Source of the DNA: Fidelibacterota bacterium | GTDB lineage: Bacteria; Fidelibacterota; UBA2242 | Direction of reading: 5' to 3' | Length of the DNA stretch: 64,000 bases | Assembly: GCA_016783665.1 (NCBI GenBank) | Contig: JADHWC010000003.1 | Coordinates: 1,959-65,958, forward strand | Part shown: positions 10,090 through 24,752 of the stretch, piece after piece | Layout of the letters: each line of letters opens with the position of its first letter | Numbering within the stretch: the stretch's first letter is position 1 | Notes under the pieces: model-generated | What the model saw: only the letters and a program-made list of their open reading frames with translations | Told to the model about the DNA's origin: nothing | The model's database searches: none | Made by a program: the position numbers and the translations under genes

Positions 10090-10221
10090 TGGATAATTCC
10101 TTATATAATTTGCATAATTATTGAAAAGCGCATTGAGATGTTACGAATATCATGCCAAAATTTTTAAACGTCATATTGTCAGATATTATTTCCGGAATAC
10201 CATAAAACCTAACCTGGATAA

Positions 10222-10287
10222 ACCCCCGAAGGGGCAGGCCCGCCTGCTCCCGAACCGCTACGGCGGAGAGGGTGGGCAGGCAGAGCC
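10222..10287. repeat. GC-rich palindromic element E1 (REP-like)
   Basis: A ~65 bp segment of >65% GC in ~35% GC surroundings (cccccgaaggggcaggcccgcctgctcccgaaccgctacggcggagagggtgggcagg). It shares gctcccgaac...gagaggg(t/c)gggcagg with the element inside hsdS (19419-19497, opposite strand). Confidence 0.7.
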
Positions 10288-10340
10288 AAAAAGGAAAAGA
10301 GTTAAAAGTGAAAAATGAACAGGCTGTTCCAGTCCAGGCG

Positions 10341-10490
10341 ATTCTGGATACTGGATTCTGGATACTGGATTCTGGATTCTGGATACTGGATTCTAGATAC
10401 TGGATTCTGGATACTGGGTACTGGATTCTGGATACTGGGTACTGGATTCTGGATACTGGGTACTGGATTCTGGATACTGGGTACTGGATA
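10341..10490. repeat. Tandem heptanucleotide array (~21 x [a/t]ctgg[a/g]t) with a 21-bp higher-order unit actgggtactggattctggat x4
   Basis: Direct reading shows attctggatactggattctggat... ending in four perfect 21-mers, in the divergent region between htpG and the receiver/hydrogenase operon. The 79-aa ORF listed here is its translation. Confidence 0.9.
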
Positions 10491-10798
10491 AGAAAAAAAA
10501 CAAGAATATGATTAGTAAGGGACTAATTGTTCACGAAATACGCTATAAATTGTAAATCTTTTGGAGTTTTATGGCAAATATTGTATGCTCCTTTAGATTT
10601 CATTTATTATATTACGGCGCTTTGATGGTTTATTGAAAACACTATAGTACGTATCAGATATCTAACAGCTAAGCGTATATGATACAGTTGCAATAAATTC
10701 TCTGTAAATAAGCCCCTTTTATCAGGCTATTTTAAATAGTATGACCGGGGATAATCGTACATAAAAAATATTAGATCACATTTTAGGAGGACTGTTTA

Positions 10799-11170
10799 AT
10801 GGCGAAAATATTAATAGTCGATGATGACGAAGACTTTGTATCGGCTGTCAATCTCTTACTGAAAAGCAACGGTTTTGATGTTGCAATTGCAAATTCCCGC
10901 CAGGAAGGAATGGAAAAATTTGATGAAGATAATCCGGACCTGGTCTTATTGGACGTGATGATGGATGAACCGGATGACGGATTTGTAATGGCTCAATCGC
11001 TCAAGAAAAAAGCGAAGGACATCCCGGTTCTGATGTTAACAAATGTCGGACAGGTTACAGGTCTGGATTTTGACAAAGACAGTGAAATGGTTCCCGTCGA
11101 TGATTTTGAGCAAAAACCAATTATGCCAAATATATTACTTGATAAAATAAACCAACTTCTTGGCAAATAA
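10799..11170 (+). CDS. Stand-alone response-regulator receiver domain protein (CheY-like)
   Basis: 123 aa: ILIVDDDEDF...LVLLDVMMD (acidic pocket and phospho-acceptor Asp) with AGGAGG RBS; sits immediately upstream of the hydrogenase genes. Confidence 0.8.
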   Translation: MAKILIVDDDEDFVSAVNLLLKSNGFDVAIANSRQEGMEKFDEDNPDLVLLDVMMDEPDDGFVMAQSLKKKAKDIPVLMLTNVGQVTGLDFDKDSEMVPVDDFEQKPIMPNILLDKINQLLGK

Positions 11171-11182
11171 GGAGATAGGTCA

Positions 11183-12919
11183 ATGCAAATTATCGATAGA
11201 CAAAAAGTAAACAAACAAATTAAGGAACTGAAGAAAAAATATGGTGACGATCGCTCCGCTCTAATGCCGATACTTCAGGACCTTCAGGAAATTTACGAGT
11301 ATCTTCCGGATGTTGTAATGCAGGAGACGGCGCATTCTCTTGGAATTCACCCTGTGGAAGTTGAAGGTGTTGCCAGTTTTTACAGCTTCCTTCGCACGAA
11401 GGAAAAACAGGGCAAATATGTCATCCGGCTATGCCGGACAATTTCCTGTGATCTCGCCGGCAAATCAAATGTTGCCCGCCAGCTGGAAAATGAAATGGGC
11501 ATCAAATTCGGCGAAACAACAAAAGATGGAAAATTCACACTCGAATATACAAACTGCCTTGGAATGTGCGATCGAGGACCTGCCCTGATGATCAATGATC
11601 GTCTGTTTGCAAAGGTAGATCCTGAGAAAGCATCTCAAATCATAGCAGATTGTCGCAGGGATTTTTTAAAGAGCGACTTTCCGAAAGTTGTTCCCTCAGA
11701 TGTTAAGAAAGCCGGACCGATCCTGGATCATGGTTTAAAACCTGCTGAAGCAATAAAAAAAGCGCTTAGTATGTCACGCTCGGAAATCATTAATACTATC
11801 CGTGAATCCGATCTAAAAGGTCGCGGAGGCGCAGGTTTTCCTACTGCTGTTAAATGGCAGCTCGCCGGCGCCGCAAAAGGCGAAAACAAATATGTCGTCT
11901 GTAACGCCGATGAAGGTGAACCGGGAACTTTCAAAGATCGTATGCTGCTTTACGAACATACCGATTTTCTTCTTGATGGAATGACCATTGGCGCTTATGC
12001 AATCGGCGCTTCAAAAGGTTTCATCTACCTGCGTGGTGAATATCTCTATATGAAAAAATATCTTGAGGAAGCCCTGGAAAATCGCCGGTCGGAACATCTG
12101 CTTGGAAAAAATATCCTCGGGAAAGATGGTTTTCACTTTGATATTCGAATCCGAATGGGAGCCGGCGCTTATGTATGTGGTGAAGAGACTGCCTTAATTG
12201 AATCTCTTGAAGGCTATCGCGGTGAACCCCGCAACCGTCCGCCCTTCCCTGTCGACACAGGATTCCAGGGTAATCCGACAATCGTCAACAATGTCGAAAC
12301 TTTTATTGATTCAGCCTTGATAATTGTAAAAGGGTACGAGTGGTTCAATATTCATGGAACAGAAAAATCGAAGGGCATGAAGATCTTCAGCATCTCAGGC
12401 GATTGCGAACGTCCCGGTATTTACGAGTTTCCTTTCGGAATTAAGGTTTCCGAATTATTAAAAGAAGTTGGCGGTGAAGACGCAAAAGCAGTCCAGATTG
12501 GCGGCGCTTCCGGTCATTGTATATCACGAAAAGACTTTACCCGTACTATTGCTTTCGAAGATATCGGATCGGGCGGTTCAATTATTGTTTTCGGGCCTGA
12601 TACCGATATGCTGCAGGTAGCCAAGAACTTCCTTGAATTCTTCGTGGAAGAATCCTGCGGACAATGCACACCTTGCCGGGATGGCAATCCGAAGCTGCTC
12701 GAAGGTATCGAAATGCTCGAAAATGGACGTTGTTCCGTTACCTATCTCAATGAATTAAAAAAATTAGGCGAAACGATTCAGAATGCATCAAAATGCGGTC
12801 TTGGCCAATCAAGTCCTAACGCATTCTTATCTATTGTTGACAATTTTAAACCAGAAATCCTTGGCCCGGCAGCTGCCGGGAAGCTGACTAAGGAGGAGCG
12901 CTATGCAAGAAAAAGATAA
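11183..12919 (+). CDS. NuoE-NuoF-like fusion (HydC/HydB-like NADH-binding flavoprotein subunit of a multimeric [FeFe] hydrogenase)
   Basis: N-terminal thioredoxin-like [2Fe-2S] NuoE domain (CRTISCDLAG...CLGMCDRGPA); NuoF FMN/NADH motifs (RGRGGAGFPT, GAGAYVCGEETALIESLEG); 4Fe-4S motif ESCGQCTPCRDG. No extra C-terminal ferredoxin domains. Confidence 0.88.
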   Translation: MQIIDRQKVNKQIKELKKKYGDDRSALMPILQDLQEIYEYLPDVVMQETAHSLGIHPVEVEGVASFYSFLRTKEKQGKYVIRLCRTISCDLAGKSNVARQLENEMGIKFGETTKDGKFTLEYTNCLGMCDRGPALMINDRLFAKVDPEKASQIIADCRRDFLKSDFPKVVPSDVKKAGPILDHGLKPAEAIKKALSMSRSEIINTIRESDLKGRGGAGFPTAVKWQLAGAAKGENKYVVCNADEGEPGTFKDRMLLYEHTDFLLDGMTIGAYAIGASKGFIYLRGEYLYMKKYLEEALENRRSEHLLGKNILGKDGFHFDIRIRMGAGAYVCGEETALIESLEGYRGEPRNRPPFPVDTGFQGNPTIVNNVETFIDSALIIVKGYEWFNIHGTEKSKGMKIFSISGDCERPGIYEFPFGIKVSELLKEVGGEDAKAVQIGGASGHCISRKDFTRTIAFEDIGSGGSIIVFGPDTDMLQVAKNFLEFFVEESCGQCTPCRDGNPKLLEGIEMLENGRCSVTYLNELKKLGETIQNASKCGLGQSSPNAFLSIVDNFKPEILGPAAAGKLTKEERYARKR

Positions 12920-14831
12920 ATTATTTGAAGAAACAAACCGGTCCCCTAAAAGTACAAAAACGGCTTCCGTAAAAATACCGGTAAATACTGAGGCGATTGG
13001 TGCGCTTATTAAAGTCACTATCGACGATAAAGAGATCAGAGTTCCAATGGGAACCACAATTCTCGAAGCTGCCGGAAAGCTCGGGATAAACATTCCTACA
13101 TTATGCTATCATGAAGACCTGTGTATCAGCGGTGTCTGTCGTATATGTGTTGTAGAGATTGAAGGATATAGAACGCTTCAGGCATCTTGCGCTTTTACGA
13201 TCACTCAAGCGATTAATGTTCATACTCACACCCGTAAAGTCCGCCAGGCGCGCCGTCATATACTTGATCTTCTGCTTTCGAATCATTATGGCGAATGCTA
13301 CACTTGTGTTCGGAATAACAATTGCGAACTACAGAAATTAGCCAATGAATACGGCGTTGATTTTTACCGCTTCGGACATGTTGAAAAACCGACTTACGGT
13401 CGTGATGAATCTTCCTATGCAATTGTCCGCGATATGGATAAATGTATCATGTGCCGGCGTTGCGTACGCACCTGTATCGATCTGCAGGAAGTCGGCGTCT
13501 ATGAAGCTATGAATAAAGGCGCTGAAACCCATATCGGAACATTTATGGATAATCCCATGGCGCAGTTGATCTGCATCAATTGCGGTCAATGTATCAACCG
13601 CTGCCCAACCGGCGCATTACATGCTAACGATCCGTCAGACACAATCTGGGCGGCAATCGACGATCCGACAAAACATGTTGTAATCCAGACCGCTCCGGCC
13701 CCGCGTTCGGCGATTGGAGAATGCTTCGGACTGGAACCCGGCAAACCACTTACATTCGAAATGAATACAGCGATGCGCTATTGTGGCTTTGATAAGGTAT
13801 TTGACACAAACTTTACGGCAGACCTTACAATTATTGAAGAAGGCACTGAACTGATTCTGCGACTGTATAATGCGCTTGTGAAAAAGGAACAGCAAGCCCT
13901 GCCGCAGTTCACATCCTGTTCGCCGGGCTGGGTAAAATATATCGAACATTTTAATCCGGAAATGTTAGCACATGTCTCCTCTGTTAAAAGTCCGCAGCAG
14001 ATGTTCGGTGCGGTTATTAAAACCTATTATGCCGGACTCAATAATATCGATCCGGCTGATATTGTCACGGTGGCTTTAATGCCCTGCACGGCAAAGAAAT
14101 TCGAATGCAATCGTCCTGAAATGAACGATTCCGGTTTTAAGGATATTGATTACGGTTTAACCACACGCGAACTGGCGCAGATGTTTAAGGAAACCGGCAT
14201 AGACCTGGTAAATATGAAAAAATCGGATTTCGACGATCCTTTTGGAACTGCAACGGGTTCCGGCGTTATTTTTGGCGCAACCGGCGGTGTGATGGAATCC
14301 GCTCTCCGCTCGGTATATGAATTCATTTCCGGCGAAAAGATCGAGAATCTGTTCGATCATGCCAGGATTGTTCCGGTGCGTGGATTTGAAGGCGTTCGCT
14401 ATGTGGAATTGCCCATTGCCAAAGTCGGACCCGTGCCGGACATCCTCAAACATCTTGTTCCCGATTGGAACTGGCTGAAGGGCGTCACATTGAAAGTTGC
14501 GGTATGTCACGGTACTGCAAACGCCAAAAAAATTCTCGATGATATAAAAGCCGGCGGCAGAATGAGTGAATGCCATTTTATCGAATTCATGGCTTGCCCG
14601 GGCGGATGTCTCGGCGGCGGCGGTATGCCGATCCCGACCGATGAAAAGATCCGCGCTGCCCGCGCTAAAGCAATTTATGCCGAAGATGAATCCTCCGAAG
14701 TCCGGAAATCCTATGAGAATCCCGCTATTATAAGACTCTACTCTGAATTTCTCAGCGACGGACCATGTGGACATAAAAGCCATAAATTGCTGCATACCGG
14801 TTACACGCCGCGAGGGAAAAAACTGGTTTAA
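12903..14831 (+). CDS. hydA: [FeFe] hydrogenase catalytic subunit HydA (M3-type, with N-terminal [2Fe-2S] and accessory [4Fe-4S] domains)
   Basis: H-cluster motifs L2 MPCTAKKFE and L3 EFMACPGGCLGGGG are present; L1 reads TSCSPGW rather than the canonical TSCCPxW; N-terminal CYHEDLCISGVCRIC [2Fe-2S] and CxxCxxCxxxCP ferredoxin motifs; overlaps the upstream gene by 17 nt. Confidence 0.9.
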   Translation: MQEKDKLFEETNRSPKSTKTASVKIPVNTEAIGALIKVTIDDKEIRVPMGTTILEAAGKLGINIPTLCYHEDLCISGVCRICVVEIEGYRTLQASCAFTITQAINVHTHTRKVRQARRHILDLLLSNHYGECYTCVRNNNCELQKLANEYGVDFYRFGHVEKPTYGRDESSYAIVRDMDKCIMCRRCVRTCIDLQEVGVYEAMNKGAETHIGTFMDNPMAQLICINCGQCINRCPTGALHANDPSDTIWAAIDDPTKHVVIQTAPAPRSAIGECFGLEPGKPLTFEMNTAMRYCGFDKVFDTNFTADLTIIEEGTELILRLYNALVKKEQQALPQFTSCSPGWVKYIEHFNPEMLAHVSSVKSPQQMFGAVIKTYYAGLNNIDPADIVTVALMPCTAKKFECNRPEMNDSGFKDIDYGLTTRELAQMFKETGIDLVNMKKSDFDDPFGTATGSGVIFGATGGVMESALRSVYEFISGEKIENLFDHARIVPVRGFEGVRYVELPIAKVGPVPDILKHLVPDWNWLKGVTLKVAVCHGTANAKKILDDIKAGGRMSECHFIEFMACPGGCLGGGGMPIPTDEKIRAARAKAIYAEDESSEVRKSYENPAIIRLYSEFLSDGPCGHKSHKLLHTGYTPRGKKLV

Positions 14832-14855
14832 ATTATCTTTGCGATAAAATGAATA

Positions 14856-14883
14856 AGGCTATCCGATTGGGTAGCCTTTTTTC
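14856..14883 (+). terminator. Rho-independent terminator after hydA
   Basis: ggctatcc-gatt-gggtagcc hairpin followed by TTTTTT. Confidence 0.75.
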
Positions 14884-14939
14884 AATTTCATCTCATTCAC
14901 CTCGTTCCCAAATTTAATTTGGGAATGAGTCGAAATCCA

Positions 14940-17888
14940 TTACACTTTCTCTGAATAATCCTCAAACAACACTCTTTTCACATACTGATTCCGTTTGGGC
15001 TCAGTGAGCTTTTTGTAAAAACCCAAACTATCATCCACCAATCCTTGTAGTAATTTGTCAAATACCTTGTTGAACATAAATCTTTTATTGGATTCTGTGT
15101 TATCACCAAGATGAACTTTCCGTAGTTCCTTATCCTCATTCAACCGGGTTTGTATTTTTTCCAAATTCACTTTGTCATCGTCGTTCAAATCACTACCAAA
15201 GTTCTCATTTAGGACTTGTATGATATGGGATAGTAAATCTTTGAGTTCTTCGGGTGGAGATTCACCCACCCCGGTTGATATAGGTTGTAACTCCCCATCC
15301 TCATACATCAGGGAAATCGGATAGCTATGTTTCTTCTCAATCCTGAAATACTCCAAATCCACATAGGAAAAAACATCTGCCAATCTATCTCTTGTTCTCC
15401 TGGGGAGTTTCCTGTTCAGGAATCGCAGGAAGATATACAGTTTTTCAAGCTTTATATCTTTGAAAGTGATGATTTGAGAAATGTATCCGTACAGTCTAAT
15501 AAAACTCTGAATCTGATGACGGAAATCTTCCCTTTCTTCTTCCTCCAACCTCTTCCAATCTTCTACCACATAGTCCAAAATGGGTTGTAGTTCTTCATCG
15601 GGTATTCTGTCATCGTAGAACTTCTCTATCAACTCATTTACTGTTTCATCCCGGAATAGATTGTATTTCTTTATTTCTTGTTCAATGGAATACAGTTTGT
15701 TGGGGTCGGTTTCCTCTACAAGTAGAGTCCCTTGATAGTATGGTTGGAATGAATCCTGAATGATTTCCGGTTTATTCACAAAGTCCAATACAAGAGTGTC
15801 AGTCTTACCTGTCATCGTTCTGTTCAACCTGCTCAAAGTCTGAACGCACTGGAGTCCTTGAAGTCGTTTATCTACATACATTGTATGAAGTAACGGTTCG
15901 TCAAATCCTGTTTGAAACTTGTTACAAACAATCAGGATTCTATACTGCGGGTCTTTGAAGTTCTCCTGGGTCAATCTTTCAGGGAAACCGTTCAATGATG
16001 GCTCTGTATATTCCTTGTGAGTATCCTTATCATACACCGTTCCACTAAATCCAACCAGGACTTTGAATGGAAATTCCATTTCTTTTAACTGCTTATCAAA
16101 TTCAAGTTTGTATTTGACACAGTGAAGTCTTGAGCGGGTCACCACCATTCCGCGACTCTTGCCGCTTATTTTTAGGGAGCTATGGTTCAGGAAGTGTTCT
16201 AAAATGATTTTGGTTTTTTCAGAGATGGTATGCGGATGAATATCTACATATTTCACCAACATCTTTTTTACACGACTTTCGGGCAGTTCCTTATCCTCCT
16301 CAATCTTTTTATTTAGACGGAAATATCGCTCATAAGTGGTGTAATTCTGTAAAACATCAAGAGTAAAATTTTCTGAAATACTCTGTCTCATTGAATACAA
16401 ATCAAAAGAAACGAACTGTCCGTCCTCGTTCTTTCTGCCAAAGATTTCAAATGTTTTATTCTTCGGTGTTCCACTAAAACCGAAATAGGAAATATGAGCT
16501 TGTCTTCCCCTTGAAATAATTTCATCTAATATCAGTTTATCCACTTCGGTAAGGTCATCCCAATCCTCACCTTCCTGGAACTCATCCAATACAGATTTGG
16601 ACAGAGATTTTTTCAGGTGTTTGGATGTTTCTCCACTTTGAGATGAATGAACTTCATCGATGATAACGCCGAACTTCTTACTTTTCAGTCTGGATATGGA
16701 ATCTGATATAACAGGGAATTTCTGAACTGTGGTAATGATGATGGATTTCCCCAATTCAAGGTATTCTTTCAACTGTTGGGAATTGACATCCACAGGATTC
16801 ACTACACCTTTGGTTTGTTCTAACTGTTTAACGGTATTCCGTATTTGTTTGTCTAAAACCTTTCTGTCTGTAACTACAATTACAGAATCAAACATACCTT
16901 CCGTGTCTGCGGGAGTTCTGTAAAGAGAAGTCAATAGATGAGACAACCAACCAATAGATAAGGATTTACCACTTCCTGTGCTGTGTTGTATCAGATAATT
17001 ATTTCCAACACCTTCTTCAACTACAGATTTCTTCAAGCTCCTGATGACATTCAATTGATGGAATCGGGGGAAAATCAGAAGTTCTTTTTTCTTATCAACC
17101 ACTTTCCCAAGCTTTGAATCATACACCTTCTCTTTTTCTTCACGGATATGAACAAAGTTCTCTATCAAATCCAACATACTGTTGGGATGTAGAATATCCT
17201 CCCACAGATAATGGGTTTTATGTCCTTTAGGATTGACAGGATTTTCAATGTCTTTGTTGTAAGGAAGAAACCGTGTCTTACCACCCATCAACCGTGTCGT
17301 CATTGACACTTTTTCATTCCCTACAGAAAAATACACAAGATTCCGTTTGAATCTGAACAACGGTTCTTTGGGATCGCGGTCATACTTCCATTGTTTCTCA
17401 CCGTCGATATGGTTCTGTCCCGTGAGTGTGTTTTTCAGTTCCATCATCACGATTGGGATTCCATCGATGAAGATTCCCATATCAATAGAGTTCTCATTTT
17501 TCAGAGAGTATTTCAGTTGTCGGATGACGGTAAAACGATTCTGTTTGTATAAATCTTTATGTTCAGGATTCAGCCCGCTCCTGGGCTGGAAATATACCAG
17601 GTGAAAATCACAGCCCCTGTCCTTGACGCCATTCCGTAAGACATCGATAACCCCTCTGTTTTCAATTTCTGTGGATACTCGTTTTATCAGTTTGATTTCT
17701 GTTTCAGAACCATATTGTAATTCAAGTTTTTCAAGGGTTTTAGCCTGGGTTTCCTGAATGAATTCAATCAGTTGGGCAGGAATAAGACAGAGAGTTTTAT
17801 CATATATGGATGGGTCTGATGAAGAATAACCACTACTGACAAGATGTTCTTCAATGTGTTCTTCAAAGTCTTGTTCAAGGTAATTCAT
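14940..17888 (-). CDS. hsdR: Type I restriction enzyme R subunit HsdR
   Basis: 982 aa with an N-terminal PD-(D/E)xK nuclease motif (IDGIPIVMMELK), SF2 helicase motif I (HSTGSGKS) and motif II (DEVH); lies in an hsdM/hsdS context. Confidence 0.85.
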   Translation of the reverse strand: MNYLEQDFEEHIEEHLVSSGYSSSDPSIYDKTLCLIPAQLIEFIQETQAKTLEKLELQYGSETEIKLIKRVSTEIENRGVIDVLRNGVKDRGCDFHLVYFQPRSGLNPEHKDLYKQNRFTVIRQLKYSLKNENSIDMGIFIDGIPIVMMELKNTLTGQNHIDGEKQWKYDRDPKEPLFRFKRNLVYFSVGNEKVSMTTRLMGGKTRFLPYNKDIENPVNPKGHKTHYLWEDILHPNSMLDLIENFVHIREEKEKVYDSKLGKVVDKKKELLIFPRFHQLNVIRSLKKSVVEEGVGNNYLIQHSTGSGKSLSIGWLSHLLTSLYRTPADTEGMFDSVIVVTDRKVLDKQIRNTVKQLEQTKGVVNPVDVNSQQLKEYLELGKSIIITTVQKFPVISDSISRLKSKKFGVIIDEVHSSQSGETSKHLKKSLSKSVLDEFQEGEDWDDLTEVDKLILDEIISRGRQAHISYFGFSGTPKNKTFEIFGRKNEDGQFVSFDLYSMRQSISENFTLDVLQNYTTYERYFRLNKKIEEDKELPESRVKKMLVKYVDIHPHTISEKTKIILEHFLNHSSLKISGKSRGMVVTRSRLHCVKYKLEFDKQLKEMEFPFKVLVGFSGTVYDKDTHKEYTEPSLNGFPERLTQENFKDPQYRILIVCNKFQTGFDEPLLHTMYVDKRLQGLQCVQTLSRLNRTMTGKTDTLVLDFVNKPEIIQDSFQPYYQGTLLVEETDPNKLYSIEQEIKKYNLFRDETVNELIEKFYDDRIPDEELQPILDYVVEDWKRLEEEEREDFRHQIQSFIRLYGYISQIITFKDIKLEKLYIFLRFLNRKLPRRTRDRLADVFSYVDLEYFRIEKKHSYPISLMYEDGELQPISTGVGESPPEELKDLLSHIIQVLNENFGSDLNDDDKVNLEKIQTRLNEDKELRKVHLGDNTESNKRFMFNKVFDKLLQGLVDDSLGFYKKLTEPKRNQYVKRVLFEDYSEKV

Positions 17889-18089
17889 TTTTCCAATTCT
17901 TTTCTAAAGTTTGTCTAATTTAGTAAAGAAACTGCGTGATTCAAGTGATAATACATAATTCGAATAACTCCTTGTTATAGCGATAGATAGATGTATTCAT
18001 ATCCTGCATTTCAATCTTATTTGCTATCAATTCAACACCCTTCTTTACTAAAACTTTACTAATTCTTTACTAAAATCCATTTTCTACCA

Positions 18090-18665
18090 CGTAACCCACG
18101 AATTTATTCGTGGGTGATACAATAATGTCTAAACCAAACCGATTCATCGGTTTATCTCCAGATTATGCAACTTCATGAATTGTTCATATTCCTCTTTGAA
18201 GGTCATTTTACGATGATGCTCTTCTTGCGTTCGGATGTATCGTTCGACTTTTCCCACATCAGATTCACTAACAGAAAACGCTCCATAGCCAACCTGCCAA
18301 CTGAATTTTAATTGTACTAAATCCTCCTGATTAATCCAATGAGACGTTTCCCCTTTGATAGATTTCATTACTTGAGCAATTGAGACCTCTCTGGAAAGTA
18401 AAAATAATTGATGCACATGGTCACTTGTCCCATTGATAATTAGAACCTTACAATCCATTTCCTCCAATTTCTCGTATAAATGGGTATGTACATCTTTACG
18501 GATAGCATTAACAAGCAATGGTCTCCGATCTTTAGTTCCAAAGATGCCGTGTATCCATAATTTTGTTAGTGAGTGACTCATAACTTTCCTTTGTATAAAC
18601 CGTTAAAACGGTTTCCTTTTTGTTGTTGTTCATGCTCCCACGATTGAAATCGTGGGTTTCTAACA
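18090..18665 (-). mobile_element. IS200/IS605-family (possibly RAYT-like) element inserted between hsdR and hsdS
   Basis: A Y1/HuH tnpA gene is flanked on each side by a pair of hairpins in mirror arrangement. Left side: cccacgaatttattcgtggg then aaccgattcatcggtt; right side: aaccgttaaaacggtt then cccacgattgaaatcgtggg. Confidence 0.7.
18144..18581 (-). CDS. tnpA: IS200/IS605-family tyrosine (HuH, Y1) transposase TnpA
   Basis: 145 aa with HuH motif (SDHVHQLF) and a C-terminal catalytic Tyr region (ERYIRTQ); N-terminal WIHGIFGTKDRRPLL resembles IS200 TnpA and RAYT. Confidence 0.8.
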   Translation of the reverse strand: MSHSLTKLWIHGIFGTKDRRPLLVNAIRKDVHTHLYEKLEEMDCKVLIINGTSDHVHQLFLLSREVSIAQVMKSIKGETSHWINQEDLVQLKFSWQVGYGAFSVSESDVGKVERYIRTQEEHHRKMTFKEEYEQFMKLHNLEINR

Positions 18666-18721
18666 ATTGTTTATCATTCAGTCCTCGATTGTGATTGTGG
18701 ATTGCTTCGTATGGTTCGCAT

Positions 18722-20158
18722 TCATCTTGATTGTGTCTCTCCTTCAACCAAGACGGTTGAGTTATACCCCCTCACATCAATTTTCCCCGTCACCACTTCG
18801 GAAATAAGTGATTGACGGTATTCTTTTAAAAGTTCAATTCGTTGGGTTTCTTTTTCAATGGTAGTGTCAATCTTTTGGGTTTGTTCATCAAGATATTCAA
18901 CGATTTGGTGTTGTTCAGTATTGGTTGGTTTTGGATAAACCATATTTGAATATTTTTCACCATTCACATTTTCAATAGTTGAAGTGATTGTGTTTAGACG
19001 AATCCAATATAAATAAAAATCAGTTTTCGTTGTGTAAAAGACAAATTTTGAAGAAAAATAATCCCCAAAATTGAATCTTACTAAATAACCACCTGAAGAA
19101 TACATACCATCTTGAAGATGTAAATATGATTTGCCTACAGTATGTCCACTTCTACATAACAACAAATCATATTTATCCAATAGAAACTCTACATCCACAT
19201 CTGATTCAATTAAATATTTTCCATTATCGGGATTCAATTCTCCACAATCATCAAGGTCTGTAATCCTTATAAACCTTACACCATTTTCAGTATATCTGTC
19301 ACTACTAATATTGAGACCATAACGAACTGGTATTAGTGTATCGTATTTAAGTTTTGAAATAGTCCAACCACTCGGAATCTCCCCAATCCACTTAACACCA
19401 CTATCTTTCATCTCCACATTCCTGCCCGCCCTCTCGTCCGTTCGGGAGCCAGCCTGCTCACGGAGTGCTGGCAGGCAGGCGGGGGGGTTCAGCCCTTTGG
19501 TCACACAATGATTGATAAGGGCAGTTCGTTTTTCTTTCAGGAGTTCGATCTTCTTTTCTGTTTTTTCAATCAGTTCGTCAATCTTTTGGGTTTTGTGGTC
19601 AAGGAAGGAGACGATTTGTATTTGTTCTCTTTTTGGAGGAATCAAGAATTGAAAAGTAGAAATCTCTTCTTGACTCAACATTGGGATTGTTGTAATTGAA
19701 CCAATCAAATTAATTTGAGTAAAAATGTGATTTGATTGTAAATAGTACCAAAGAAATATTGGATTTTCTTTTATTTGATTAACCAAAACAAGACTCGGAT
19801 TGATTGTCATTTCACCATAATCTTCATCAATGAATACTACTTTCCCTAAACTTCCCCTTTGACTAATAATCATATCACCTTTTTTCACCATAATCTCGGG
19901 GGACTCATAATATTTATCCCAACTCAAAAAGTCAGGATTTGATAGGTCTATTTTTTGGGATGAGTTGATATGTTTCCCTCCAAGAACTAAACATCCTTCC
20001 CCTTCATCTACAAAATCAGTTTTCTTATATCCTTTGTATCCAATCCTACCCTGTAAATTTACAATATATCCAAGTTTTTTTCTTGCCCACCCACTCGGTA
20101 TCTCTCCAATCCACTCAACTTCACTATCTTTATATGACGGATACGGTCTCATTATCAA
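18722..20158 (-). CDS. hsdS: Type I restriction-modification specificity subunit HsdS (two target-recognition domains)
   Basis: 478 aa with duplicated EVEWIGEIPSGW / GVKWIGEIPSGW TRD starts, a central coiled-coil conserved region, and C-terminal ...LISEVVTGKIDVR. Confidence 0.85.
   Translation of the reverse strand: MIMRPYPSYKDSEVEWIGEIPSGWARKKLGYIVNLQGRIGYKGYKKTDFVDEGEGCLVLGGKHINSSQKIDLSNPDFLSWDKYYESPEIMVKKGDMIISQRGSLGKVVFIDEDYGEMTINPSLVLVNQIKENPIFLWYYLQSNHIFTQINLIGSITTIPMLSQEEISTFQFLIPPKREQIQIVSFLDHKTQKIDELIEKTEKKIELLKEKRTALINHCVTKGLNPPACLPALREQAGSRTDERAGRNVEMKDSGVKWIGEIPSGWTISKLKYDTLIPVRYGLNISSDRYTENGVRFIRITDLDDCGELNPDNGKYLIESDVDVEFLLDKYDLLLCRSGHTVGKSYLHLQDGMYSSGGYLVRFNFGDYFSSKFVFYTTKTDFYLYWIRLNTITSTIENVNGEKYSNMVYPKPTNTEQHQIVEYLDEQTQKIDTTIEKETQRIELLKEYRQSLISEVVTGKIDVRGYNSTVLVEGETQSR
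19419..19497. repeat. GC-rich palindromic element E2 inserted in-frame in the hsdS inter-TRD linker
   Basis: A ~78 bp stretch of ~70% GC inside a ~33% GC gene. It translates to ...PPACLPALREQAGSRTDERAGRNV... exactly between the central conserved helix (TKGLNP) and TRD2 (EMKDSGVKWIGEIPSGW). Its reverse complement is similar to E1 at 10222-10287. Confidence 0.7.
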
Positions 20159-20239
20159 TTCTTTTTACATAGGTTAATAACGCAAAAAATTACACATACT
20201 TTTATATCTATAGGTAAATAATCCAATTTTCTACCCATA

Positions 20240-21304
20240 CTATTCTTCGCCTGCAAATAGTGTAAATAATGGTAAGTTGACATAATAGTTACTATTTTTG
20301 ATTTTCATTTTTTTTACAAAGCCATCTTCTGATAACTGATTGAGATAACCGGATGCCGTTTTTCTTGACACCCTTAATTCATGTTCAACAAACTCTATTT
20401 TTGTATAAGGATGTTTAAACAAGTTGTTTATCAAATCCTGGCTATAAAATTTATATTGATTTCTTATTCGATGTTTATAATCCATCATCAACCGCTTAAT
20501 CTCAGAAATAATTATGACGGTGTGTTGCGATGTTTCTGCAATGCCATTTAACATCCAGATAATCCATGATTCCCAATCATTCTCCGTGCGAACACCTTGC
20601 AACAATTGATAATAATCCGTTTTGTTCTCAATAATGTATTTGCTGAGATAAAGAACCGGAATATCAAGTAGTTTTTTTTGTAGTAGATACAGAATATTGA
20701 TAATTCGCCCGGTCCTGCCATTACCATCATAAAAAGGATGAATACTTTCAAACTGATAGTGAATGATTGCCATTTTAATCAACGGATCAATATCGTGCAG
20801 TGAATCTTCATTGATATAATTTTCAAGATTGCTCATTAACGCAACAATTTCATTTGCATCCTGTGGCGGTTTGTAGATGGTTTCTCCAGCGCTGTTTTGC
20901 AATACCGTGCCAGGTATTCTTCGAAAACCTTGCTTTATCGGCTCAATTATTTTTTGAATTTCCAAAATATAATTATTTGTCAAAAGATGGTGCTTTTTGA
21001 CCAGTTTAAATCCTTTTTTCAAAGCATTTGCATAATTTTTCACCTCTTTTGCCGCTAGATTATTGAAACTATCGTCCGCATCCGCACGGTAAAGATCATC
21101 TTGAGTAGTTATTATATTTTCAATTGCAGAACTATCTTTTGCTTCTTGTAAAGCAAGTGTATTTATAAGAATTTCTTCATTAGGAATTGTTTTGGATTCT
21201 CCTTTCAACTCCCCCAACGCCCGACTGGCTTTGTTTAAATTTTCATAAATATCCGATGTTTTGACATTTATATCCAGAGGCAACTTTTGCAATGATATAT
21301 TCAT
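20240..21304 (-). CDS. fic: Fic/DOC family protein (adenylyltransferase-type Fic)
   Basis: 354 aa with Fic motif HPFYDGNGRTGR; overlaps the hsdM stop by 4 nt and lies between hsdM and hsdS. Confidence 0.85.
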   Translation of the reverse strand: MNISLQKLPLDINVKTSDIYENLNKASRALGELKGESKTIPNEEILINTLALQEAKDSSAIENIITTQDDLYRADADDSFNNLAAKEVKNYANALKKGFKLVKKHHLLTNNYILEIQKIIEPIKQGFRRIPGTVLQNSAGETIYKPPQDANEIVALMSNLENYINEDSLHDIDPLIKMAIIHYQFESIHPFYDGNGRTGRIINILYLLQKKLLDIPVLYLSKYIIENKTDYYQLLQGVRTENDWESWIIWMLNGIAETSQHTVIIISEIKRLMMDYKHRIRNQYKFYSQDLINNLFKHPYTKIEFVEHELRVSRKTASGYLNQLSEDGFVKKMKIKNSNYYVNLPLFTLFAGEE

Positions 21305-23007
21305 AATATCTCCTTCATCAATCCTTCTGTTTCCTCCTCCAATTTCAACAAATCCCGGGTGATTTCTTCCAATGACCGAAGTGGTTTATATTTGTAAAAA
21401 TACTTGGTGAAGTTGATTTCGTAGCCCACTTTGTCTTTGTCTCTATCCATCCAGGAACCCTTCAAATGGGGTATAACTTCCCGTTGGTAGTATTCCTCAA
21501 TATCATCCAACAAGGGAACACGTTCATAATCTCTTTTTGATGTGTCAGGTTTCGGATTTCCCTGCTTATCCGTTACTATTTCACCGTTTTCCATCATCGG
21601 TTGTTCTATGGTGACTTTGGTATAACCGAAAAACTCATTGGGATAAATTTTACTGTATTCACTCTCCGCAAAGTTCAGATAGTGTTCCAATAAGGTATTT
21701 CGGTTTTCCTCGGTGATTTCTTTCCGTTTATTCCCCAGTGATTTCTTCATCTGTTTGAAGAAAGCAGAACCGTTGATGAGTTGGACTTTACCTTTTCGTC
21801 TTTCTGATTTCCTGTTATTTACAATCCATATATAAGTGGAAATACCTGTGTTGAAGAACAGTTGGTCGGGAAGTGATACAATACACTCCAGCCAATCATT
21901 TTCAATAATCCATTTACGGATTTCAGATTCACCGCTGCCACTGTCCCCCGTGAATAATGGAGAACCGTTAAACACTATCCCAATCCGGCTTCTTTTTGAT
22001 TCCATCTTGGAAATCATATGTTGAAGGAATAACAAAGAACCATCAGAAGTTCGTGGTGTTCCGACGGAGAATCTTCCATAGGGATTCTGTCCCTCATTTT
22101 CAATGAACTCTTTTTCAGATTTCCAGCTAACACCAAATGGGGGATTTGTAATCATATAGTCATATTTTTTTCCTTGAAAATTGTCCTCTGATAGAGATGA
22201 ACCCAATCGGATGTTGTCAGGGTCTTCATCGGTAATCAACATATCGGACTTACAGATTGAATAGGTTTGGGGATTCAGTTCTTGTCCTAACAGACGAAGT
22301 TTCACTTTGTCGTTGATATTCTGATGGATATATTCTTTTCCGATAGTCAACATTCCGCCAGTTCCACAACAAGGGTCAAAAATGCTTCTGACTTTGCCTT
22401 CACCTTGTAAATCATCTTTATCCTCTGAAAAGACAAGGGAAACCAACAGACGAACTACATCTCTTGGGGTATAGTGTTCTCCACTTGTTTCATTGGACAT
22501 TTCAGAGAACTTCCGTAACAATTCTTCAAAGATAAGTCCCATATCACGGTTGGAAATCTTATCAGGGTGTAAATCTATTTCGGTGAGTTTGTCTATAAGA
22601 ATAAACAGACGGTTATTCTTGTTCAGTTTCTCAACCGGTTTCTCCAACTGAAAATTCTCAATAATCTCGACAACATTGTCACTGAATCCACCCAGGTAAT
22701 TCTGAAAGTTCATATATACATTCTGTGGGTCGGATTTCAGTCTTTTCAAATCATACTTGGAATGATTGAAAAAGCTGGTGTTGATTCGGTTTAGAATGAT
22801 TGGGGTGGGGTCATCTACTTTGGTTCTGTATTCTTCGTAGATGTTGAACACATCGTCTTTGTGAGGTTCTAAAACACAATCCAATCTCCGTAGAACGGTG
22901 AACGGTAGAATCACATCGCCGTATTCGTGTGGTTTGAATAATCCCCGAAGGACATCATCACAGACATTCCAGATGAAGGATGATATTTGGTTATAGTTAT
23001 TTGACAT
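21301..23007 (-). CDS. hsdM: Type I restriction-modification N6-adenine DNA methyltransferase HsdM
   Basis: 568 aa with SAM-binding FDPCCGTGGML and catalytic NPPFG (ITNPPFGVSW). Confidence 0.9.
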   Translation of the reverse strand: MSNNYNQISSFIWNVCDDVLRGLFKPHEYGDVILPFTVLRRLDCVLEPHKDDVFNIYEEYRTKVDDPTPIILNRINTSFFNHSKYDLKRLKSDPQNVYMNFQNYLGGFSDNVVEIIENFQLEKPVEKLNKNNRLFILIDKLTEIDLHPDKISNRDMGLIFEELLRKFSEMSNETSGEHYTPRDVVRLLVSLVFSEDKDDLQGEGKVRSIFDPCCGTGGMLTIGKEYIHQNINDKVKLRLLGQELNPQTYSICKSDMLITDEDPDNIRLGSSLSEDNFQGKKYDYMITNPPFGVSWKSEKEFIENEGQNPYGRFSVGTPRTSDGSLLFLQHMISKMESKRSRIGIVFNGSPLFTGDSGSGESEIRKWIIENDWLECIVSLPDQLFFNTGISTYIWIVNNRKSERRKGKVQLINGSAFFKQMKKSLGNKRKEITEENRNTLLEHYLNFAESEYSKIYPNEFFGYTKVTIEQPMMENGEIVTDKQGNPKPDTSKRDYERVPLLDDIEEYYQREVIPHLKGSWMDRDKDKVGYEINFTKYFYKYKPLRSLEEITRDLLKLEEETEGLMKEIL

Positions 23008-23090
23008 ATTTTATTTCCCTTTTTATCGGCTGTATCAAGTCGGCGTTGAAGCGCTTGTTATGTGTTTTCTCACTTAATTATTTATCAATC

Positions 23091-24752
23091 TTAAATTTCT
23101 TCTATTCTATCTTTATTTATCCATTGTAAAAATGTTGGATATTTTTGCACTGATGAAATTAGGTATACTTTTTTCTTTGTTCTAGTTAGTGCAACAAGAA
23201 AATTACATATATCTCGATCAGTATTTTTAGTTTTGTCATTATCTTTTATAAAATAACGATCATCGAAATGAGTAATAAATACTAGATCTCCTGAAAGACC
23301 TTTTGAGCTTTGTATTGTTGTAGTTTTAATCGGTATTTTTCTGATAGCAGGAATACCTACGGGTTGAAAAACATTATTTATTTTTTCACGTGCGAATTCA
23401 TTTAATATGGCATAAGGATCTATGTTAATTTTTTTCATAATGTCAATAAATTCATCATTATCAATAGGCTTTTTATCTTTTATCTTTTTTAGTATTTTTA
23501 AAATACTTTTTACTTCTTTTTTAAAATCCTTATCAACTATTTCATAAATCATTTTACTAGAATTTGAATATGTAGCACTTAATAAAGTACTAAAATCATC
23601 ATTCGATAATAGATATTTTGAAACTATACGCCAACCGAGGTTATCATTGATATTGTTAAGTAGAAGTTTAAAACCATCTAAAAGGGATACTTCTTTTTCA
23701 TCCTTTATCTTACACTCAATATTTTGCATCCCTTTTTTCTTCAATGCCTCGGCAATAAAATTAGATTGTTTTCTATAAGGAGAAATAATTAATACTGAAA
23801 ATTTATTTCTTAAATCTTTTGCCATTTCGCTTATCTTTTTTTCAATAAACCAAGGTATTTGACTTGCGAATATCTGTTTGTATCCAATAGTTGAATATTT
23901 TTCACTTTCTTTATCTTTTTCTTTTTCGTGAAAATATTGAAATGGTTTATTAATACGTTGATCAAGAAAATCAAATTTTTTAGCAGCAATTATAATGTCA
24001 TTTGTTGCATCGACGATAACTTGTGTACACCGAGCACAAAATGGTAATTTGAATGATTCATAATCGGGTACATCATCTCCAAACCTTTCTCGTATATGTC
24101 GAGTACTAGCATTTTTAAATTCATAAAGCGCCTGATCATCATCACCTGCTAATAATATCGAACTTTTTTCAGATAGTAAATCGATAAGGGATACTTCAAG
24201 TTTATTAAAATCCTGAAATTCATCTATTAAAATTTGATCATATGATGGTATTCTTTCTCTATATTTTTCAAAATACTTTACTAATGCATAGATAATACTT
24301 GAATAACCATAGTAATTATAATAATCGACTCGCTTTTTATAAAACTGAAGTAATTCATCATTATCTTTTCTATTATGAAATAGATATTCGAAATCAACTT
24401 CTTTTCTAAGAATATATTGGGTATCCTCTTTTATAACATTTGTAAGTTTCGGAAAAATATTAATACTTCTACTCTTGACAGCACTAAGCGTACTTCGGGC
24501 GAAACTGTGAAGTGTTTTGACGTCTGACATACCATATAATTCTAAGGATAAATCTTCAACAAGAGAATTAATAAAGGTTAGTGTCAATGAATTTTTTTTA
24601 CCCTCAAGTATTTTTCTAAATAGAAAGGTCTTCCCTGTACCTGGTCCGGCAACAACAACCTTTTTGAATGATTTTGAATTTAATATCGCATCAACATGTT
24701 TTTTCCTATCATTTATTGCTTTGGAATAAACTGATCCGTCTAGCTCTGACAT
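23091..24752 (-). CDS. UvrD/Rep-like superfamily-1 DNA helicase (stand-alone, very AT-rich gene)
   Basis: 553 aa with Walker A (AGPGTGKTF), motif II-like (LIDEFQDFN), GDDDQALYEF, and C-terminal motif VI-like (VALTRTKKKVYL). Confidence 0.75.
   Translation of the reverse strand: MSELDGSVYSKAINDRKKHVDAILNSKSFKKVVVAGPGTGKTFLFRKILEGKKNSLTLTFINSLVEDLSLELYGMSDVKTLHSFARSTLSAVKSRSINIFPKLTNVIKEDTQYILRKEVDFEYLFHNRKDNDELLQFYKKRVDYYNYYGYSSIIYALVKYFEKYRERIPSYDQILIDEFQDFNKLEVSLIDLLSEKSSILLAGDDDQALYEFKNASTRHIRERFGDDVPDYESFKLPFCARCTQVIVDATNDIIIAAKKFDFLDQRINKPFQYFHEKEKDKESEKYSTIGYKQIFASQIPWFIEKKISEMAKDLRNKFSVLIISPYRKQSNFIAEALKKKGMQNIECKIKDEKEVSLLDGFKLLLNNINDNLGWRIVSKYLLSNDDFSTLLSATYSNSSKMIYEIVDKDFKKEVKSILKILKKIKDKKPIDNDEFIDIMKKINIDPYAILNEFAREKINNVFQPVGIPAIRKIPIKTTTIQSSKGLSGDLVFITHFDDRYFIKDNDKTKNTDRDICNFLVALTRTKKKVYLISSVQKYPTFLQWINKDRIEEI

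Follow-up and report, generated by a model that had tools for sequence, protein, structure and literature searches.

The dimeric [FeFe] hydrogenase HydAB of S. aciditrophicus makes H2 from NADH without ferredoxin when purified, and its beta subunit unites in one chain the counterparts of S. wolfei gamma (N-terminal) and beta (Losey 2020, PMC7311640). Here we describe a comparable pair of genes, hydB and hydA, in a 64,000-nucleotide stretch of contig JADHWC010000003.1 (hereafter the window) from a Marinimicrobia (Fidelibacterota) genome, where they form a single operon with a gene for a stand-alone CheY-like receiver (rec). A sequence-only reading of this locus had regarded its architecture as atypical for a multimeric hydrogenase. 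That is not so: HydB and HydA have the published dimeric, non-bifurcating HydAB architecture (PMC7311640), which has its own NCBIfam model, is very common and is not new. The enzyme itself adds little, being a further Marinimicrobia member of the NADH-only hydrogenases, through which fermentation and syntrophy become sensitive to H2 pressure. The lead is the receiver, a putatively phosphorylatable protein without an output domain, kept across phyla in or beside the operons of cytoplasmic enzymes that couple H2 or formate to NAD(P). Its linkage to hydrogenase genes is real and conserved.

The three same-strand open reading frames encode 123, 578 and 642 amino acids (aa). The sequence-only reading had placed the receiver gene at the head of the operon, 12 nt from hydB and with its own ribosome-binding site, and both its coordinates and its signals proved correct. 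The features of the operon are as follows.

10785 to 10790, plus strand: Shine-Dalgarno sequence AGGAGG of the receiver gene, 8 nt ahead of its ATG (10799; direct sequence reading)
10799 to 11170, plus strand: stand-alone CheY-like receiver, 123 aa, without output domain (Pfam Response_reg, 5.4e-18)
11171 to 11182, plus strand: 12-nt spacer from the receiver stop to the hydB ATG, with the GGAG ribosome-binding site of hydB and no terminator
11183 to 12919, plus strand: hydB, fused NuoE-like and NuoF-like diaphorase subunit, 578 aa (Pfam, NCBIfam, structure alignments)
11219 to 11653, plus strand: NuoE/HydC-like thioredoxin-fold [2Fe-2S] domain of HydB (aa 13-157; Cys84, 89, 125 and 129; PF01257, 1.5e-46, full-length match)
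11747 to 12859, plus strand: NuoF-like part of HydB with flavin mononucleotide (FMN)/NADH-binding domain, SLBB domain and N3-type [4Fe-4S] cluster (aa 189-559; Cys492, 495, 498 and 538; PF01512, PF10531, PF10589; NuoF/HydB structure alignments)
12890 to 12896, plus strand: Shine-Dalgarno sequence AAGGAGG of hydA, 6 nt ahead of its ATG and within the 3' end of hydB
12903 to 14831, plus strand: hydA, M3-type [FeFe] hydrogenase catalytic subunit, 642 aa (NCBIfam NF040763, Pfam)
13920 to 13922, plus strand: codon of Ser340 in the P1 motif TSCSPGW of HydA, opposite Cys300 of CpI, which ligates the [4Fe-4S] subcluster of the H-cluster, when aligned with CpI and A. woodii HydA1
14855 to 14888, plus strand: intrinsic terminator with a 10-bp GC-rich stem, a 4-nt loop (stem-loop 14855-14878) and a T-run, between hydA and the convergent hsdR

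When the operon was scanned for intrinsic terminators, none was present within or directly after the receiver gene, and the sole good one was that 3' of hydA (-20.9 kcal/mol, z = -5.1; none of 200 shuffled sequences folded as well). The hydB and hydA genes overlap by 17 nt, since the C-terminus of HydB is 11 aa longer than that of its usual 567-aa relatives (12887-12919). In a syntenic locus that is probably from Marinimicrobia (L161; the loci fetched for comparison are numbered with L), the two genes are 10 nt apart and do not overlap.

The hydrogenase encoded by hydB and hydA

Pfam searches of HydB gave 2Fe-2S_thioredx (aa 13-157), Complex1_51K (206-375), SLBB and NADH_4Fe-4S (479-559), which bears out the earlier statement that NuoE and NuoF are fused in one 578-aa protein ending right after the N3 cluster. 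The domain search proposed with that statement revealed neither a Fer4 nor an extra 2Fe-2S domain at the C-terminus, where just 19 residues follow the N3 domain (aa 559). The NuoE model PRK07539.1-2 scored 144.8 bits on HydB (cut-off 141), and the four cysteines of the NuoE-like domain are invariant in the alignment of HydB homologues. HydB also aligned from end to end with two fused diaphorase subunits of known structure, HoxF of the NAD+-reducing soluble [NiFe] hydrogenase (5xf9_A) and FdsB of NAD-dependent formate dehydrogenase (7e5z_B), both likewise NuoE-NuoF fusions of about 570-590 aa that end after N3. Their catalytic partners are a [NiFe] and a Mo/W-pterin enzyme, in contrast to the [FeFe] enzyme here.

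In the work of Losey, non-bifurcating HydB subunits are recognized by Thr or Ser at T. maritima HydB position 232, Lys, Ser or Ala at 234, Tyr at the FMN site (~312) and the lack of GGPSG at 427-431 (PMC7311640). The FMN-site residue is numbered 367 in the text of that paper and ~312 in its supplement, and the latter agrees with our alignment count. The diagnostic positions of HydB were taken from HMMER alignments to solved structures, namely four bifurcating-type subunits including T. maritima HydB, and HoxF. HydB of the window carries EPGTFKDR (T and K at positions 232 and 234), GAGAYVCGEE (Y at ~312) and GGASG in place of GGPSG, and thus has the non-bifurcating state at every one of these positions, while T. 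maritima HydB and the three other bifurcating-type subunits have A232, M234, F312 and GGPSG in the structure alignments. The motifs EPGTFKDR and GAGAYVCGEE are shared with HoxF, which is non-bifurcating.

These motifs are near-invariant among the 120 best HydB homologues. At least 8000 candidate homologues were found, and the best 120 (61-96% identity) are nearly all 558-581 aa long with the same domains. Their source labels include Marinimicrobia, KSB1, Cloacimonetes, Zixibacteria, Gemmatimonadota, Leptospiraceae, Fibrobacterales, Firmicutes and Deltaproteobacteria, and the close relatives are labelled Marinimicrobia, Neomarinimicrobiota or Fidelibacterota. In Ignavibacteria-type relatives, the NuoE-like and NuoF-like domains are encoded by separate adjacent genes (157 and 412 aa). 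Whether NuoE and NuoF are fused or split is thus a minor variable, which changes freely from one close relative to the next.

HydA has the M3 layout in Pfam, with Fer2_4, NADH-G_4Fe-4S_3, two [4Fe-4S] clusters, the H-cluster domain and a small-subunit-like tail; that is, a [2Fe-2S] and a His-ligated [4Fe-4S] cluster stand ahead of the two [4Fe-4S] clusters and the H-cluster domain. It was matched by NCBIfam NF040763, "NADH-dependent [FeFe] hydrogenase, group A6", over aa 36-637, with 781.4 bits against a cut-off of 765, a narrow margin; many relatives of HydA have already been named group A6 by NCBI. The protein is 100% identical to one deposited under "Candidatus Marinimicrobia bacterium".

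The H-cluster motifs of HydA are TSCSPGW (P1, the Ser variant), MPCTAKKFE (P2) and EFMACPGGCLGGGGMP (P3). The P1 serine, Ser340, is kept in 119 of 120 homologues, and most of the fetched hydA genes that encode it are partnered by a short HydB of the non-bifurcating type, while the 575-aa second HydA copies of Ignavibacteria-type loci retain TSCCP. We considered this serine as a new active-site variant and rejected the idea, as it is present in the solved, active A. woodii HydA1, where it was described as being without spectroscopic effect (PMC10021017). Relative to A. woodii, T. kivui and CpI, HydA has a 35-aa N-terminal extension and, in the H-domain, an insertion of about 20 residues containing PVPDILKHLVPDWNWLKG (about aa 500-525, window 14400-14480).

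Based on these features, HydB and HydA are predicted to form a dimeric, non-bifurcating, ferredoxin-independent NADH-dependent [FeFe] hydrogenase of the S. aciditrophicus HydAB kind, its activity being assigned by homology to the characterised enzyme. The likeness to SYN_01370/SYN_01369 lies in architecture and diagnostic residues: both are two-gene enzymes with a NuoE/NuoF fusion that lacks extra Fe-S domains and an M3-type HydA, both have T, K and Y and lack GGPSG, and the gamma (NuoE-like) domain precedes NuoF in the same polypeptide, as in the dimeric subtype. The window differs from S. aciditrophicus in host phylum and in the conserved receiver gene that heads its operon, none being mentioned by Losey 2020 (PMC7311640); a literature search for the neighbours of SYN_01369/01370, with partial coverage, returned nothing. 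S. wolfei Hyd1ABC and the predicted non-bifurcating HydABC of I. album (Losey 2017, 2020) also have a short HydB without C-terminal clusters, and Ignavibacterium album HydB, listed as non-bifurcating in Losey Table S1, has exactly the T/K/Y/GGASG signature (PMC7311640). In both, however, HydC and HydB are separate genes, whereas they are fused here. The Ignavibacteria-type loci found in this study also carry the receiver.

The bifurcating HydABC enzymes of T. maritima (7p5h), A. woodii (7q4v) and T. kivui (8a6t) have a closely related HydA, and the one of A. woodii shares the Ser-for-Cys exchange at the H-cluster cubane ligand. A. woodii HydA1 (7q4v_A) is in fact the best solved relative of HydA (560 bits), the closest solved structures belong to bifurcating complexes, as the catalytic subunits of A. 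woodii and T. kivui HydABC, and a HydDB-style classification would probably place HydA in group A3. It could thus be proposed that the enzyme is a ferredoxin-dependent bifurcating or confurcating hydrogenase whose ferredoxin-binding clusters come from another subunit or are dispensable. We consider this very improbable. HydB of the bifurcating enzymes is extended at its C-terminus by about 70 residues that hold two [4Fe-4S] clusters (B3 and B4), and it has extra [2Fe-2S] clusters and the A/M/F/GGPSG residues; these features, which define the electron-bifurcating HydABC (group A3/BfuABC), were tested and are absent from the window HydB, and the enzyme is therefore not assigned to that class. 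The operon holds no further Fe-S subunit gene, and deletion of the HydB C-terminus lowers the bifurcation activity of T. kivui HydABC (PMC10021017). The reduced electron-transfer chain noted in the sequence-only reading is thus genuine as far as the missing clusters go, but it is common and had already been explained.

The receiver and the genes that accompany it

The receiver matched Pfam Response_reg with 65.6 bits (cut-off 30.2) and has the phospho-acceptor D52, the acidic pocket D8/D9/D10, T81 and K106. Across 121 homologues (at least 53% identity), D8, D9, D52, T/S81, K106 and the signature LDVMM[DEQ][EQ]PDDG ... PVDxFxxKP are invariant, and D10 is invariant or nearly so; the key residues are also kept in 15 operon-linked orthologues. 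NCBIfam models gave only sub-threshold matches (for example DVU0259/DivK-like, 50 bits against a cut-off of 160). The protein is a canonical receiver, predicted to be phosphorylatable, and has no output or DNA-binding domain.

For the linkage with the hydrogenase, 80 genome loci were fetched with the HydB alignment, and the three window proteins were blasted against their open reading frames. A receiver orthologue (35-59% identical) was located immediately upstream of HydB, or of HydC and HydB, in 14 of the 80. These loci come from Acidobacteriota (L003, L009), Phycisphaerae (L010), Kapabacteria (L025), Ignavibacteriota and Melioribacteraceae (L004, L005, L012, L016, L024, L042), unclassified metagenome-assembled genomes (L001, L058) and metagenome-assembled genomes filed as Bacteroidetes (L006) and Hyphomicrobiales (L015). 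The same trio is present in a 7.6-Mb genome (L164) and in a closer relative, probably from Marinimicrobia (L161/L162), where HydB is 79% identical and the dprA-obg-htpG flank is shared. Over 30 loci from at least five phyla, the distance from the receiver stop to the NuoE or HydB start was -14 to +16 nt, about one third of them overlapping. In L005, L006, L016 and L024, there is one receiver paralogue per hydrogenase gene set, and in L006 this fits enzyme-specific adaptors. One metagenome locus (L106, 133-2656) has a receiver on either side of a NuoE-NuoF pair, in the order REC-NuoE-NuoF-REC.

The association was also assessed in reverse: metagenome contigs were scanned with the receiver alignment alone, and the neighbours within 5 kb were scored in 80 loci. 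A hydrogenase, formate-dehydrogenase or NuoEF gene was found in 41 of these, and in 15 of the 20 loci that span 8 kb or more; many of the other contigs are too short to judge. The neighbours comprised NuoE/NuoF (23 loci), HydA or a NuoG-type N-terminal match (11), the [NiFe] large subunit (11), Mo-pterin FdhA (7), a HydS-like sensor (6) and a histidine kinase (36). As we would expect such H2 or formate genes in fewer than a few percent of random 10-kb neighbourhoods from anaerobes, this represents a large enrichment. These neighbourhoods thus mark the receiver as one of a subfamily devoted to cytoplasmic enzymes of H2 and formate metabolism that are linked to NAD(P).

Several of these loci, read with Pfam, illustrate the range of partners. 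In L003 (2385-7265), REC-NuoEF-FdhA encodes an NAD-linked formate dehydrogenase, and in L008 (6194-12459), Rex and a REC-histidine kinase are divergent from HoxF-U-Y-H-W-REC. L132 (422-6622) has a group-3b-like [NiFe] hydrogenase with HyhB/G-like subunits, followed by REC and a GAF-histidine kinase, and L105 (992-7050) has a formate dehydrogenase with HyhBG-like subunits, followed by REC and a REC-histidine kinase. The order in L006 is a bifurcating HydB'-HydA', HydS::HisKA-HATPase, REC', REC-PAS-HisKA-HATPase, REC-HydC-HydB-HydA and a membrane kinase. L006 (2648-4636) and L083 (1025-2284) encode HisKA-HATPase fused to a [FeFe] hydrogenase domain of the sensory type (Fe_hyd_lg_C plus FeS), so in some genomes the receiver stands beside a HydS-type sensor fused to a histidine kinase. 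A description of this association between receivers and hydrogenase or formate enzymes was not found in the part of the literature that could be searched, which included the Losey papers (PMC7311640) and a survey from 2024 that deals with group C sensors and A3 hydrogenases.

One could argue that the receiver gene has nothing to do with the hydrogenase and has come under the same promoter in this genome by accident. In the window, a search with phmmer and four kinase queries gave no histidine kinase, and there is no second receiver; L161 has no histidine kinase within 10 kb, and the receiver looks generic against solved structures, its best matches being OmpR/PhoB-type receiver domains. Such an accident is scarcely credible, since synteny contradicts it: the gene order and tight spacing recur in 30 independent loci of several phyla, so the arrangement is not a chance juxtaposition. 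The association is seen in both directions, the subfamily has its own invariant motifs, and, of the 49 receiver homologues with a longest contig of 10 kb or more, 35 are on a contig equal in size to that of a HydB/HydA match. The earlier view that the receiver belongs with the hydrogenase genes is upheld by this linkage in relatives and by the lack of a terminator of its own.

Possible role of the receiver

H2-sensing control by HoxBC-HoxJ-HoxA in Cupriavidus necator and by HupUV-HupT-HupR in Rhodobacter capsulatus ends in a DNA-binding NtrC-type regulator. The relatives L006 and L083 resemble these systems, and those with the putative group C sensor HydS, in having a hydrogenase-like sensor with a histidine kinase and a receiver beside catalytic genes. 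In contrast to HoxJ/HoxA and HupT/HupR, the conserved receiver here has no output domain and lies inside the enzyme operon. Since there is neither a DNA-binding regulator nor a sensor or kinase in the window, the locus is not a HoxJ/HoxA-type system.

Taking the enzyme and the comparative data together, we propose the following course. NADH would reduce FMN in the NuoF-like part of HydB, and the electrons would then travel via the N3-type [4Fe-4S] cluster, the NuoE-like [2Fe-2S] probably serving as a relay or side cluster. From there they would pass through four accessory clusters in HydA and reduce protons at the H-cluster. Judging from the characterised homologue, this NADH-H2 reaction should be reversible and yield H2 solely at very low H2 partial pressure. 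The receiver may be the local output of a H2- or redox-sensing His-Asp pathway, and tight translational coupling would match its production to that of the enzyme. Either its phosphorylated or its unphosphorylated form would act by protein-protein contact, most likely on the co-made hydrogenase, and restrain NADH-H2 exchange as H2 rises. We hold this reading as a whole (the operon, the non-bifurcating NADH hydrogenase and the receiver as pathway output acting on the enzyme) with moderate confidence.

H2 or redox state is suggested as the input by the locus context, because the locally encoded pathways include the hydrogenase-like sensor kinase and hybrid kinases containing PAS or GAF domains. 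Action at the protein level is favoured because the receiver has no DNA-binding domain and the complete clusters encode no transcription factor, because there is one receiver paralogue per hydrogenase set in L005, L006, L016 and L024, and because stop-start coupling implies matched production. Taken alone, this mode of action is tentative, and we would put it somewhat below an even chance.

Several observations weigh against the proposed role. The absence of a kinase from the window and from the surroundings of hydA in L161 has been described above. The same enzyme occurs without the receiver in Fusobacteria (L002, L007), L023, Leptospiraceae (L163) and all Bacteroidales-type loci, where HydA is ~50% identical. 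Recombinant S. aciditrophicus HydAB is active without any receiver (PMC7311640), and thus the receiver is not needed for catalysis. The subfamily also accompanies non-homologous diaphorase modules (NuoEF in some loci, HyhBG-like in others), which speaks against a single docking surface kept throughout and for a partner within the signalling pathway; its commonest neighbour is a kinase.

A pure phosphorelay role is therefore a serious rival. With the enzyme unchanged, the receiver would act solely within the signalling pathway, either as a shuttle or sink for phosphate or by modulating a hybrid kinase allosterically (DivK-/CheY-like logic), and the output would be transcriptional through a DNA-binding regulator encoded elsewhere. 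Stand-alone receivers of the DivK and CheY type commonly act on kinases, and both the frequency of REC-(PAS/GAF)-HisKA-HATPase kinases beside the receiver (36 of 80 loci) and the variety of diaphorase modules speak for this explanation. However, fully read clusters such as L006 encode no DNA-binding regulator, and in L006, L016, L024 and L005 a receiver paralogue stands beside each hydrogenase gene set. Across phyla, the receiver gene keeps its stop-start coupling to the gene of the first enzyme subunit, which would be unusual for a pure relay protein, and the Marinimicrobia receiver stays with the enzyme despite having no kinase nearby. On balance, we regard the relay role as the less likely of the two.

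Direct action on the enzyme, the reading we prefer, can be stated in a bolder form, in which a phospho-dependent receiver docks on the co-translated hydrogenase (and its paralogues on NAD(P)-linked [NiFe] hydrogenases and formate dehydrogenases), gating NAD(P)H-H2 or NAD(P)H-formate exchange upon H2 sensed by HydS-type kinases. In this specific form the proposal is speculative, and we think it rather improbable. If true, such a docking or gating receiver would represent post-translational two-component control of a redox enzyme, and it would be the long-missing output of the "sensory" group C [FeFe] hydrogenases. The earlier suggestion of a two-component-regulated or receiver-gated module thus remains plausible and is strengthened by comparative genomics, but the 64-kb window supplies no kinase for it. 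The clusters bear on how putative H2-sensing [FeFe] hydrogenases signal and on how cells keep NADH-linked hydrogenases from reversing as H2 accumulates, and they are compact and testable both genetically and biochemically.

Surroundings of the operon

Upstream of the receiver gene is a 709-nt intergenic region, followed by the divergent htpG, obg and dprA. No match to a Rex operator was present in 10090-10798, and window-wide matches were at chance level. Rfam gave no credible riboswitch or leader RNA in the 709-nt region or within the operon. The stretch that separates htpG from the receiver gene contains, at 10341-10489, 7.1 copies of a 21-nt unit (ATTCTGGATACTGGGTACTGG) with 93% match and a 7-nt sub-period GATACTG; Rfam gave no match to this repeat. 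The upstream alignment with relatives begins at window position 10520, 3' of the repeat. A near-perfect palindrome, CTATTT-T-AAATAG, lies at 10727-10739, ~60 nt upstream of the receiver ATG, and its stretch is the best-conserved part of the upstream alignment with L081, L161 and L001. Judged by its sequence and position, it is a possible operator or promoter element.

Downstream of hydA, a convergent type I restriction-modification island occupies 14940-24752, with genes for HsdR, an IS200-like Y1 transposase (18144-18581), HsdS, a Fic-domain protein and HsdM. It is followed by a UvrD-like helicase, and the genes further downstream are housekeeping genes. The island is probably an insertion; in the syntenic relative L161, NifS/NifU-like genes follow hydA in its place.

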